A stretch of DNA of 36,183 nt. Origin: Hadesarchaea archaeon DG-33 (GTDB lineage: Archaea; Hadarchaeota; Hadarchaeia; Hadarchaeales; Hadarchaeaceae). The stretch lies in contig LQHI01000062.1 in the NCBI GenBank assembly GCA_001515185.1, positions 1 through 36,183 of the forward strand. The letters run 5' to 3'. The notes beneath the pieces were generated by a model that saw nothing but the letters and a program-made list of their open reading frames with translations, had not been told where the DNA came from and did no database searches. The position numbers were made by a program, and so were the translations under genes. Below, piece after piece: positions 30,844 through 36,146 of this stretch. How positions within the stretch are numbered: position 1 is the stretch's first letter; each line of letters opens with the position of its first letter.

Positions 30844-32802
30844 ATGGGAGATAGAAACGTGAAAACAGGCGTGTACATTTGTCATTGTGGGTTAAATATA
30901 GCTGCTACCGTTGACGTTGAAGAAGTGGTGAAACATGCTAAGTCTTTGCCAAATGTGGTGATCGCTAGGGATTATAAGTACATGTGCTCTGACCCAGGAC
31001 AGGAGTTAATCAAGAAGGATATAGAGGAAGCCGGACTCAATCGTGTAGTCGTGGCGAGCTGTTCTCCAAGGATGCACGAACCCACATTCAGAAAGGTCGT
31101 GGAAGATAAGAAACTTAACCCCTACTGCTTCGAGATGGCGAATATAAGAGAGCAGTGTTCTTGGGTCCATGAAGACAAAGAAAAAGCCACTGAAAAGGCC
31201 AAGAAATTGATTGCAGGCGCTGTGGCAAGAGCTACCGAACTTCAGCCGCTAGAGAGGAGAGAAGTAGATGTAATACCGAAAGCTTTGGTGATTGGAGGAG
31301 GAATTGCCGGGATTCAAGCGGCATTGGAGATAGCGGAAAATGGGATATACACATACCTCGTGGAGCGCTCACCCTCCATCGGGGGAAGGATGGCCCAACT
31401 CGACAAAACCTTTCCAACCCTAGATTGCTCTGCGTGCATCCTTACTCCCAAGATGGTGGACGTGAGCAGACATCCAAACATAGAACTCTTGAGTTATTCA
31501 GAGGTAGAGAGCGTTGAAGGCTACATCGGAAATTTCAAGGTGAAGGTTAAGAAAAAGCCAAGATATATCGACGAGGAAAAGTGCATCGGTTGTGGAGAAT
31601 GTGCTAAAGCTTGCTTGCTGAAGGGAAAGATTCCAAATGAATTCGATCTGAGTTTAGGAAAGAGGGGGGCAGCCTACATACCGTTTCCGCAGGCTGTGCC
31701 TTTGAAATACCTGATAGATCCTAAGCGTTGCCTATACCTTACGAGGGGAGTATGCGGGAAAAAGCCTGCTTGTAAAGCAGCGTGCCTCCGTGACGCTATC
31801 GATTTTGAACAACAAGAAAAGTCCATTGAACTCGAAGTAGGCGCGATAGTGGTCGCCACGGGCTTTGACTTGTTTGATCCCTCTCAGCTGCCTGAGTACG
31901 GGTACGGGAAGTACCCGGAGGTGATTACGGGGCTCGAGTTCGAGAGACTTAGCTCGGCTTCCGGTCCGACCAACGGAAAGATCGAAGTAAACGGGAAGGA
32001 GCCCAAGCGGGTGGCCTTCATCTCCTGCGTGGGGAGCAGGAAGAAAGAGACGAATCCCTATTGCTCACGGGTCTGCTGCATGTACACGGTCAAGCATGCT
32101 CACCTCGTTAAGGAGAAAATTCCGGATGCTGAAGTGACGATATACTACACGGATGTCAGGGCTTTTGGTAAGGGGTACGAGGAGTTCTACGATCGGGTCA
32201 AAGCTGAGGGGGTTAAATACAAGCGAAGGGAGCTGGACGACGAGATAAAGGTGAGCAAGAAAAGTGACAGACTCGTTGTGGACGCGAAGCCTCACGAGCC
32301 CGAAGAAGTAGACCTCGTGGTGCTGGCGAATGCAATAGTCCCGAGATCTGGAGTCTTAGAACTCGCCAGAACTTTGAACATTACCCGCGGTCCGGACGGC
32401 TTTTTCCTAGAAGCCCACCCAAAGCTTAGGCCAGTCGATACTTTTAGCGACGGTATTTTCCTTGCCGGCTGTGCCCAATCGCCCAAAGATATCCCGGATA
32501 CGGTAGCACAAGCAAGCGGCGCAGGCGCTAAAGCCTCTATACCTCTGGCAGCGGGAAAAGTCGCGATAGAGCCGATAGTAGCAATTGTGGACGAGGATCT
32601 ATGCAGCGGTTGTAGAGTGTGTGAACACCTTTGCGAGTTTAATGCCTTTGAATATGATAGAGAAAAACGCTTGGTGAGACTCAACGAAGTGCTTTGCAAG
32701 GGTTGCGGGGTTTGTGTAGCCGCTTGTCCGTCTAAGGCTATCTCTATGAAACATTACACGGACGTTCAACTTTCCGCTCAATTGGCAGGCCTGATATCAT
32801 GA
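30844..32802 (+). CDS. hdrA: Heterodisulfide reductase subunit A (canonical-length HdrA, 652 aa)
   Basis: N-terminal [10 protein letters not shown]...[9 protein letters not shown], FAD site [34 protein letters not shown], an inserted ferredoxin domain ([11 protein letters not shown] ... [21 protein letters not shown]) and a C-terminal 2x[4Fe-4S] domain ([25 protein letters not shown]). Confidence 0.9.
   Translation: [652 protein letters not shown]
31354..31460 (+). repeat. Near-identical segment shared with 33294-33400 (hdrA1 versus hdrA2)
   Basis: By-eye alignment at a constant 1940-nt offset shows about 107 nt with 2 mismatches (at 31401 c/t and 31446 t/c), including synonymous positions. 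Confidence 0.8.
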
Positions 32803-35800: not shown

Positions 35801-36146
35801 GCCCAAGGACATCCCCGACACGGTAGCACAAGCATCAGCGAGCGCAGCTGAGGTTTGCTCTTTGTTAACAAAAGGCACGGTGGTGGCCGAAGGAATTGTA
35901 GCCTCGGTCGATGAGAATTTGTGCGCTGGTTGCGGTTTCTGTGCCGAGGTTTGTCCCATAGATGCAATAGAACTCGAGACGGTAGAGAGGAAAGGGTCAA
36001 TATCAAAAATAGCCAAGGTAAATGAAGCGCTATGTAAAGGTTGTGGCATATGCTCCGCAGCCTGTCTTTCGGGAGCCATCCAACAGCGCCACTTTGAAGA
36101 CAAACAAGTATTGCCCTTGATCGATGCGTTGGGTGAGCAAAGTTGA
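32799..36146 (+). CDS. hdrA: HdrA paralog (1115 aa) with a nested GltD/NfnB-like NAD(P)H-dependent FAD oxidoreductase module in its inserted-ferredoxin domain
   Basis: Residues 1-287 and 753-1115 are collinear with and highly similar to the upstream HdrA. Residues about 288-752 carry GltD/NfnB signatures: PCRDACPAG...[91 protein letters not shown] and [27 protein letters not shown]. ATGA overlap with hdrA1. Confidence 0.88.
   Translation: [1115 protein letters not shown]
33294..33400 (+). repeat. Partner copy of 31354-31460
   Basis: Same alignment as above. Flanking paralogous sequence is clearly more diverged. Confidence 0.8.

Follow-up and report, generated by a model that had tools for sequence, protein, structure and literature searches.

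HdrA proteins that carry a second flavoprotein inside their own fold have two published descriptions. Chadwick et al. 2022 (PLoS Biol, PMC9012536) reported HdrA9, HdrA10 and HdrA11 in ANME-1, with 45% identity to NfnB, and a later study (Microbiol Spectr 2025, PMC12054007) introduced a ‘type III HdrA’, presented AlphaFold models and noted an association with mvhADG in Bathyarchaeota, where the A10 class derives from a full-length A1-type HdrA and adjoins mvhADG. A module of the same family is found in Bfu-type NfnA/StnC, whose NfnL-like domain binds NADPH and a non-bifurcating flavin adenine dinucleotide (FAD); the flavin-proximal cluster there has a Lys ligand (StnC K170, Tsi K165) that is conserved in all NfnABC enzymes, whereas bifurcating NfnL has a Glu at this position (PMC10482914; PMC12018979). 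Here we analyse contig LQHI01000062.1 of Hadesarchaea archaeon DG-33, a stretch of 36,183 nt referred to below as the window, in which the gene hdrA2 encodes a 1115-aa HdrA of this nested kind immediately behind a canonical paralogue, hdrA1. The architecture is the same as in type III HdrA, a complete HdrA whose inserted-ferredoxin domain is interrupted by a GltD/NfnB-like insertion of ~465-500 aa. The architecture, for which the first-pass annotation of this DNA could not say whether it had been described, is thus already in the literature as HdrA9-11 and type III HdrA. The locus differs from those accounts in that hdrA2 comes from Hadarchaeota rather than from ANME-1 or Bathyarchaeota, in that those papers describe a recent class of few members (nine sequences), whereas we find at least 46 loci in ~12 phyla, and in that the Hadarchaeota operon is without hdrBC and has sulfhydrogenase-beta/gamma-like genes. 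The circular permutation, the Lys ligand, the split and swap of coenzyme motifs, the breadth of distribution and the operon reported below are refinements rather than a new kind of system.

The two genes and the parts of HdrA2 (residue numbers are those of HdrA2) are laid out as follows.

30844..32802, + strand: hdrA1, canonical 652-aa HdrA paralogue (open reading frame, NCBIfam models, alignment to HdrA2)
32799..36146, + strand, stop included: hdrA2, 1115-aa ‘type III’ HdrA with nested GltD/NfnL-like cassette (open reading frame, profile models, PDB matches, AlphaFold2 and Foldseek)
32799..33500, + strand: HdrA N-terminal Fe-S domain and first half of the thioredoxin-reductase-like FAD domain, residues 1-234 (collinear with HdrA1 and 5odc_A)
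33501..33662, + strand: first half of the inserted-ferredoxin domain, residues 235-288, CxxCxxCxxxC followed by an HdrA-specific linker (conserved in all 46 nested homologues)
33663..34880, + strand: main GltD/NfnL-like cassette, residues 289-694 (aligns to T. maritima NfnB 45-462 and StnC 102-~500; Pfam)
within the cassette, + strand: motifs PCxxxCP and CGRVCxxxCExxC, and Lys358 at 33870-33872 (residue conservation)
33957-33974, + strand: cassette FAD motif GxGxxG (residue conservation)
34350-34433, + strand: cassette NADPH Rossmann motif GGGNAA...MYRRS (residue conservation)
34944..35066, + strand: permuted segment, residues 716-756, equivalent to NfnB 2-42 and ending in RCLQC (second HMMER domain, 4ylf_B at 30.8 bits, and 5jca_L)
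35067..35123, + strand: second half of the inserted-ferredoxin domain, residues 757-775, CxxCxxCxxxC (C759, C762, C765, C769)
35124..35888, + strand: second half of the HdrA thioredoxin-reductase-like domain, residues 776-1030 (PDB search, HdrA1 alignment)
35889..36143, + strand: C-terminal 2x[4Fe-4S] ferredoxin domain, residues 1031-1115 (Pfam Fer4 and Fer4_7 at 1036-1094)

The nested architecture is confirmed by profile models, PDB sequence matches, an AlphaFold2 model and Foldseek. The hdrA2 frame opens with ATG and runs for 1115 codons (open reading frame list, 32799-36146, +). As the first-pass annotation had proposed, its product is collinear with HdrA1 over residues 1-287 and 753-1115: global alignment leaves a single gap in HdrA1, facing HdrA2 residues ~289-757, with 203 of 287 residues identical (70.7%) before it and 257 of 355 (72.4%) after it. 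Domain parsing upholds the GltD/NfnB assignment that had been made for the ~465 residues between, since Pfam places Fer4_20 at residues 290-366 (76.8 bits) and Pyr_redox_2 at 382-680 (156 bits), with generic FAD and 4Fe-4S matches on the flanks of the insert. The NCBIfam HdrA2 model NF040770 covers residues 2-298 and the C-terminal part (E = 7e-260) and GltD-type models cover residues 285-789; among the latter, PRK12771 (NF009410, the ‘NAD(P)-binding protein’ subfamily) aligns over its positions 43-544 and, at 540.2 bits, passes its curated cut-off of 516 bits, and TIGR01316 on the whole protein scores 400 bits, below its cut-off of 471.75. The curated equivalog cut-offs for coenzyme B-coenzyme M (CoB-CoM) HdrA are missed (NF040770, 864 vs 1100; NF041778, 617 vs 1400; NF041891, 608 vs 1300). 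Sequence searches of the PDB return HdrA chains in two stretches of HdrA2 (E ~1e-220; residues 2-287 align to 5odc_A residues 5-291) and GltD-family chains over residues 290-766 (1e-84 to 1e-131). An AlphaFold2 model built with 35 homologues has a mean predicted local distance difference test (pLDDT) of 83.8 and a predicted template-modelling score (pTM) of 0.72, with pLDDT ≥ 80 in most 10-residue blocks of the insert. In Foldseek, this model matches HdrA at a TM score of 0.86 normalised to 5ODC_A and 8RVU_A, and a second group of matches comprises NfnA/StnC/NfnL, with 4YLF_B and 5JCA_L at a root-mean-square deviation of 2.1-2.5 Å and 42-43% identity. All motifs quoted earlier for the insert were found in the sequence, and E-values ≤1e-100 exclude chance.

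The cofactor sites follow the same pattern. C8, C10, C43, C68, C190 and C193 are invariant in the homologue alignment (A1), and the bridging Cys is present, C193 corresponding approximately to Cys197 in the M. wolfeii numbering of PMC9012536. On the HdrA side we presume six [4Fe-4S] clusters, going by the 5ODC structure. By homology these six and the two in the cassette add up to eight, so that HdrA2 would bind as many as eight [4Fe-4S] clusters along with two FAD and would have a single NAD(P)H site, in line with the two flavins, one nucleotide site and about 7-8 clusters first suggested.

The join between the two folds recurs well beyond this contig. A metagenome contig from JGI (L001) aligns to the window with 97.6% DNA identity over 12,854 nt, unbroken across both insert junctions, and encodes a 98%-identical HdrA2 protein in the same gene order; a 1.03-Mb contig of a Candidatus Hadarchaeota metagenome-assembled genome (MAG; L007) aligns with 88.8% over 14,557 nt, again unbroken across both junctions. 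Given this contiguity in independent contigs and the junction Cys that are invariant in 46 homologues, hdrA2 is, as far as sequence can tell, a real protein under selection.

The nested flavoprotein is complete but circularly permuted relative to NfnB/GltD. Compared with T. maritima NfnB (4YLF_B), HdrA2 gives two HMMER domains in swapped order, residues 290-694 matching NfnB 45-462 and residues 716-756 matching NfnB 2-42, and P. furiosus NfnL (5jca_L) gives the same swapped two-domain pattern. The last ~40 residues of the insert (716-756) are thus equivalent to the NfnB N-terminus. When residues 716-757 were put ahead of residues 289-700, the TIGR01316 score rose from 376 bits in native order (model positions 36-449) to 409 bits (1-449 of 449), with gains for TIGR01318 (282 to 313 bits) and TIGR01317 (220 to 246 bits). 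The break of the permutation falls within the first cluster motif, separating CxxC from xxxxCxxxCP, and a single [4Fe-4S] site is therefore where the chain both enters and leaves the module. Of the Cys at the C junction, the first two (RCLQC) are ligands of the GltD-type cluster and the last four form the CxxCxxCxxxC of the HdrA inserted-ferredoxin domain; all six are invariant in the alignment, and both junction motifs (PCxxxCP at the N junction) are kept in the 46 nested homologues. The earlier anatomy of the insert therefore stands as far as the GltD module goes, and its assignment of CLQC to the second ferredoxin motif of HdrA does not, these being the first two Cys of the GltD-type cluster. 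Stand-alone PRK12771 proteins were considered as a pre-existing nested unit, a split ferredoxin plus GltD, and this is unsupported: model positions 1-47 miss the first ferredoxin motif of HdrA whether or not the HdrA linker is kept, and positions 1-42 stay unmatched even with the HdrA linker removed.

The shared Lys ligand, the permuted order and the best PDB scores place the cassette closest to the NfnL-like domains found in Bfu-type NfnA/StnC, and not to the NfnB of NfnAB. With a 566-residue fragment (residues 231-796) as query, the best PDB scores were obtained for NfnA of C. saccharolyticus (9BOV_A, 444 bits) and T. sibiricus (9N5U_A, 434 bits), against 358 bits for NfnB; the Bfu chains as a group (8OH5 C, 9BOV A, 9N5U A) score 385-444 bits. 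The cassette is collinear with StnC (8OH5_C) residues 102-575 in the permuted order, as one HMMER domain that runs over both junctions, and a single collinear domain likewise spans both junctions in 9bov_A; 9N5U_A is collinear in the permuted order as well. The cassette and these Bfu-type domains share the order PCxxxCP, FAD, NADPH, N-terminal-like helix, RCLxC, the NADPH motif GGGN.A...YRR[ST] and insertion of the cassette in a larger Fe-S protein. Lys358 aligns with StnC K170 (IAHIKRF vs IAQLKSF in StnC and IGRLERF in NfnB) and is Lys in 47/47 homologues, and R427, which corresponds to NfnL R201 (the Arg near flavin N5), is invariant among them. Going by the Lys ligand, the permuted order and the best scores, the cassette FAD would be non-bifurcating, as in NfnA/StnC. 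The host differs: in NfnA/StnC it is a NuoG/Fdh-like protein that feeds a flavin mononucleotide-based BfuBC core, whereas here it is an HdrA whose own FAD is the presumed bifurcation site, and no NuoE- or NuoF-like genes (2Fe-2S_thioredx, Complex1_51K) were found in the window or the downstream part of L007. NfnB/NfnL of NfnAB (4YLF B, 5JCA L) have in common with the cassette the fold, two [4Fe-4S] clusters, FAD, an NADPH site and the Arg near flavin N5; they differ in that the HdrA2 cassette is permuted, has Lys for the Glu ligand, has no clearly dedicated NfnA/NfnS partner and stays below the TIGR01316 cut-off (400-409 vs 471.75).

The coenzyme motif divides the homologues into two groups. 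The NAD(P) Rossmann motif, GGGN(V/A)A (GxGxxA), is present in 47/47; the GxGxxG of these proteins is the motif of the FAD site. After the second beta strand, 30/47 have YRR(S/T), among them the window (MYRRS), and 17/47 have CLE(S/T/C/D), namely Heimdallarchaeota, several ~1500-aa bacterial forms and a second Hadarchaeota locus (L009). At this position, Arg-Arg distinguishes NADPH-type from NADH-type glutamate synthases, which have an acidic residue. A YRR-type motif is shared by the NADPH enzymes StnC (VVGGGNTAMD...IIYRRT, with NADPH bound in the structure) and NfnB. From MYRRS, this likeness and the Arg-Arg rule, we infer that the cassette of the window is of the NADPH type. An argument for NADH specificity from a GXGXXG motif, made in the relevant passage of PMC12054007, is qualified by the finding that GxGxxG belongs to the FAD site and that the NAD(P) motif is GxGxxA.

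A comparison within Hadarchaeota points to exchange of the cassette. L009 is an orthologous operon, with MvhD2, a 323-aa Fe-S protein and a ShyB-like protein 93%, 89% and 87% identical to those of L007, and its HdrA2 is 86% identical to that of the window in the scaffold, yet only 40% in the insert. The DNA alignment of the two runs at 90% identity to 33634, is lost, and resumes at 35089, placing the breakpoints ~35 nt or less from the cassette ends. A similar discordance is seen among Thermoplasmatales loci (scaffolds 81-83% identical, inserts 43-45%). From this discordance and the position of the breakpoints, we conclude that the cassette has been replaced by recombination at its ends, with a switch between YRR and CLE types in Hadarchaeota. 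PMC12054007 had inferred two independent insertions; with invariant junctions, it is more likely that nested genes exchanged their cassettes than that insertion occurred anew several times. In the ~1500-aa bacterial forms our script returned inserts far more similar than scaffolds, a result that we leave uninterpreted because non-equivalent C-terminal segments may have been taken.

Nested HdrAs occur far more broadly than in the lineages from which they were described. The homologue search, whose figures are lower bounds, found HdrA-N, insert and HdrA-C in one open reading frame at 46/83 loci from ~12 phyla, and among the best 120 cluster representatives of a 5.8-billion-protein collection all have the combined architecture, in length classes of about 1100, 1212, 1290, 1500-1580 and 1700 aa. 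Archaeal sequences come from Hadarchaeota, Thermoplasmatota, Heimdall-, Thor- and Promethearchaeota and Theionarchaea, and bacterial ones from WOR-3, Thermodesulfobacteriota, Chloroflexota, Planctomycetota, Acidobacteriota and Bacillota; many of the bacterial forms have no HdrA N-terminal domain, no C-terminal ferredoxin domain, or neither. The passages of PMC9012536 and PMC12054007 that we draw on mention no permuted topology, Lys-type cassette or NADPH/NADH motif split. A literature search, which is weak evidence given an incomplete library, found no description of the nested class in Hadarchaeota, of the operon in Hadarchaeota/Asgard archaea or without HdrBC, of the cassette permutation, the invariant Lys ligand, the YRR/CLE split or the cassette swap, or of this breadth of distribution.

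The genes next to the hdrA pair are of hydrogenase type. Upstream in the window lie the following.

29753-30745, - strand: mvhG-like, group 3c-type [NiFe] hydrogenase subunit (VhuG, 223 bits)
28269-29756, - strand: mvhA-like, group 3c-type [NiFe] hydrogenase subunit (VhuA, 439 bits)
27718..28215, - strand: hycI-like hydrogenase maturation protease (TIGR00142, 86 bits)
27199..27663, + strand: mvhD1, MvhD/FlpD [2Fe-2S] electron-transfer subunit (VhuD model, 146 bits)

The mvhA/mvhG-like pair (28269..30745) is divergent from hdrA1, and hdrA1 and hdrA2 overlap by 4 nt (ATGA, 32799-32802), the start codon of the second lying over the stop codon of the first, which implies that the two would be translationally coupled. 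The paralogues also share patches of 89-96% nucleotide identity (31909-32090 vs 35229-35409), including an exact match of 58 nt (hdrA1 position 32032, hdrA2 position 35352); with protein identity at only ~71%, this suggests that gene conversion may have acted between the tandem copies. The window ends 37 nt past hdrA2, and in L001 and L007 the operon goes on with mvhD2, a 323-aa FrhB_C/AsrA-like Fe-S protein, a ShyB/HydB/AsrA-like protein (230 bits) and a ShyC/HydG/AsrB-like FAD/NAD/[2Fe-2S] protein (248 bits), before it is closed by a convergent moaE. The ShyC-like protein belongs to the NfnS superfamily, and hydrogenase-gamma/AsrB models match it best, at 248 bits, compared with 73 bits for PRK06222 (cut-off 220). 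The set of mvhD2, Fe-S protein, HydB-like and HydG-like genes presumably resembles FlxDCBA of Desulfovibrio. No hdrB or hdrC (CCG-domain) genes were found in the window, which spans 36 kb, or in L007 over the 10 kb that follow hdrA2. The same gene set recurs elsewhere: in Thermoplasmatota and Heimdallarchaeota (L002, L010, L024, L028, L030) the order mvhG, mvhA, (hycI), mvhD, 323-aa gene, shyB-like, shyC-like stands ahead of a plain and a nested HdrA pair, and in Theionarchaea and Promethearchaeota it stands ahead of a nested HdrA alone. Compared with MvhAGD-HdrABC (5ODC), the locus has the HdrA scaffold (TM 0.86) and group 3c-type hydrogenase genes with two MvhD genes near hdrA2; unlike MvhAGD-HdrABC and FlxABCD-HdrABC (Ramos et al. 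2015, listed in PMC5861303), it has no HdrBC, it has two HdrA paralogues in tandem, and one of the ferredoxin-reducing domains holds an NADPH cassette.

Taken together, we hold with moderate confidence that hdrA2 is a genuine type III HdrA whose cassette serves as the NADP(H) port of a H2- and ferredoxin-linked bifurcating complex without HdrBC. The architecture, the permutation, the type of cassette, the cofactor motifs and the operon are established here; the electron flow and its direction, the heterodimer and the net reaction are proposals. The chain leaves the inserted-ferredoxin domain past its first CxxCxxCxxxC, joins the GltD/NfnL fold at PCxxxCP, crosses the Fe-S/FAD/NADPH module, returns via the segment that resembles the NfnB N-terminus, adds the missing CxxC and runs into the second ferredoxin motif. 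The Bfu-like cassette FAD would take hydride from NADPH and pass single electrons to a cluster chain, giving a reversible route from NADP(H) over the cassette FAD, two cassette [4Fe-4S] clusters and two inserted-ferredoxin clusters to the bifurcating FAD of HdrA. HdrA2 would pair with HdrA1, in which the ferredoxin site is open, and the resulting asymmetric dimer would offer ferredoxin and NADP(H) a site each; the conservation of the tandem makes HdrA1 the probable partner. MvhAG-MvhD1 would be the H2 module docked on this dimer, and the sulfhydrogenase-beta/gamma-like (Flx-like) module linked by MvhD2 would provide a second pyridine-nucleotide or other redox site. By bifurcation or confurcation, such a complex would link H2/H+, NADP(H) and ferredoxin with no HdrBC involved. 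A net reaction that reversibly couples H2 with NADP+ and ferredoxin is plausible and would fit subsurface archaea that ferment or cycle H2. Several points weigh against this picture. The N-terminal domain and the Cys197 equivalent are present in HdrA1 as well as in HdrA2, which makes homodimers possible. In canonical HdrA the clusters of the inserted ferredoxin are the low-potential exit, and NADP(H), at about -320 to -380 mV, wired to this branch would be thermodynamically odd without a reassignment of branch roles, as proposed in PMC12054007. The functional meaning of Lys vs Glu at the flavin-proximal cluster has been called ‘far from clear’ (PMC12018979), and R427, equivalent to the Arg that forms a hydrogen bond to flavin N5 in bifurcating NfnL, is conserved in bifurcating and Bfu types alike and does not discriminate between them, so that a bifurcating cassette flavin is compatible with the sequence.

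The last point bears on an alternative that we regard as unlikely, in which bifurcation occurs twice: the nested module would be a functional NfnB/NfnL, the ShyC/AsrB/PyrK-family flavoprotein would act as NfnA/NfnS, and two bifurcating flavins would work in series. The possibility is raised in a passage of PMC9012536, and it would account for the 42-43% identity of the insert to NfnB/NfnL (2.1-2.5 Å), the invariant R427 and the conservation in the operon of an NfnS-superfamily protein with FAD_binding_6, NAD_binding_1 and DHODB_Fe-S_bind domains. However, the proximal-cluster ligand is Lys in 47/47 and not the Glu of NfnL, topology and best scores are those of the non-bifurcating Bfu NfnA/StnC cassette, and the candidate partner is accompanied by a ShyB/AsrA-like protein, as in sulfhydrogenase, and scores far better on hydrogenase-gamma (248 bits) than on the NfnA/SudB-type PRK06222 (73 bits, cut-off 220).

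We give no more credit to a role in heterodisulfide reduction, which seems equally improbable for this locus. In that model NAD(P)H would be the mid-potential donor: the cassette would block the ferredoxin site and deliver NADH electrons to the HdrA FAD, which would bifurcate them to HdrBC (CoM-S-S-CoB) and MvhAG (H+ to H2), or run in reverse. It was proposed for type III HdrA with mvhADG in Bathyarchaeota (PMC12054007), mvhAGD genes adjoin the hdrA genes in the window too, and HdrBC genes lie near a nested HdrA in L002 and L004. The absence of hdrB and hdrC from the window and the 10 kb downstream in L007 speaks against it, as do the YRRS of the window cassette, which is NADPH-type and not the NADH-type motif, and the assignment of the cited GXGXXG to the FAD site, with GxGxxA in 47/47 as the NAD(P) motif. 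Furthermore, the abstract of PMC10811742 describes most Hadarchaeota as heterotrophs, with Acr encoded in few MAGs only.

A chimeric join of an hdrA gene and a gltD-like gene in sequencing or assembly, for which a lower GC content in the insert (0.41-0.47 vs 0.51-0.56 in the next HdrA segment) is the sole point in favour, can be dismissed, since the insert-free hdrA1 has the same low-then-high pattern with a GC-rich second half, so that the dip is not a junction signal, two independent contigs (L001, 97.6%; L007, 88.8%) run through both junctions, the junction motifs are the same in 46 single-frame homologues from ~12 phyla, and at least 120 protein clusters of the 5.8-billion-sequence collection share the architecture.

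Further unusual HdrAs were seen at related loci. In Theionarchaea (L005, 11321-16273) and Promethearchaeota (L004, 11340-16261), a second HdrA beside the nested one is divided over three genes: one for HdrA residues ~1-255 fused to a NuoE-like 2Fe-2S thioredoxin-like domain, one for a NuoF-like (Complex1_51K) protein and one for a NuoG-N-terminal-like Fer2_4/Fer4 protein fused to HdrA residues ~774-1112. From this three-gene split, we read the arrangement as a putative Bfu/HydBC-type NADH module at the same HdrA insertion site as the GltD cassette. A Thermoplasmatota-like cluster (L002, 8001-19639; JGI 3300024353) has two nested HdrAs, of 1212 and 1581 aa, and between them a second MvhD, a GlcD-like FAD oxidase, an HdrD/GlcF-like CCG protein, a lipoate-protein ligase (LplA-B_cat) and HdrC-/HdrB-like genes.

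Elsewhere in the window, hypF, a hydrogenase maturation gene, lies at 8164-10497 (-) and a SufC/SufB-like Fe-S assembly pair at 25234-27155 (+). The beta (thiamine pyrophosphate-binding) subunit of a 2-oxoacid:ferredoxin oxidoreductase (10522-12489, -) contains an intein with a LAGLIDADG homing-endonuclease domain (Intein_splicing, residues 138-495) and is flanked by the alpha (12486-13670) and gamma (13924-14466) subunits. Aspartate-semialdehyde dehydrogenase (22344-23483, +; 379 aa) may have a small insertion, as it matches its models in two stretches and has ~30 residues beyond their 342-350; the lysine/threonine biosynthesis cluster to which it belongs also contains lysA-like, aspartate kinase, dapA and dapB genes (16802-21037). 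An archaeal geranylgeranylglyceryl phosphate synthase (PcrB) is also encoded, in keeping with Hadarchaeota as the source; the nearest genomes are Hadarchaeota too, and an ANME-1 origin was rejected on that ground. Scans of the window for tRNAs and Rfam families found nothing.

As the basic architecture is already in the literature, the advance is an incremental one. Nevertheless, the nested HdrA design is far more widespread than its two published descriptions suggest, its NADPH module is the movable, permuted cassette that Bfu-type transhydrogenases also use, and the predicted coenzyme specificity can change by recombination. The K358 ligand, the YRR and CLE motifs and the HdrA1/HdrA2 pairing are testable features. 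We suggest, tentatively and as something short of probable, that the nested HdrA is no rarity of methane oxidisers but the signature subunit of an undescribed, widespread class of cytoplasmic complex made up of an Mvh-type [NiFe] hydrogenase, an asymmetric HdrA1/HdrA2 dimer and a sulfhydrogenase-beta/gamma-like module, without HdrBC and with an exchangeable pyridine-nucleotide port. If true, this complex would be found in Hadarchaeota, Thermoplasmatota, Asgard archaea and Theionarchaea, with trimmed forms in numerous bacterial anaerobes; bifurcation at the flavin of HdrA would link H2, ferredoxin and pyridine nucleotides, and lineages would swap its permuted port cassette, NADPH-type (YRR) for NADH-type (CLE) or the reverse, by recombination at the ends. 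Bifurcating Hdr-type complexes set the energy economy of anaerobes living near the thermodynamic limit, and wiring NADP(H) directly into HdrA would bring hydrogen and ferredoxin together with the anabolic nucleotide pool inside a single enzyme.

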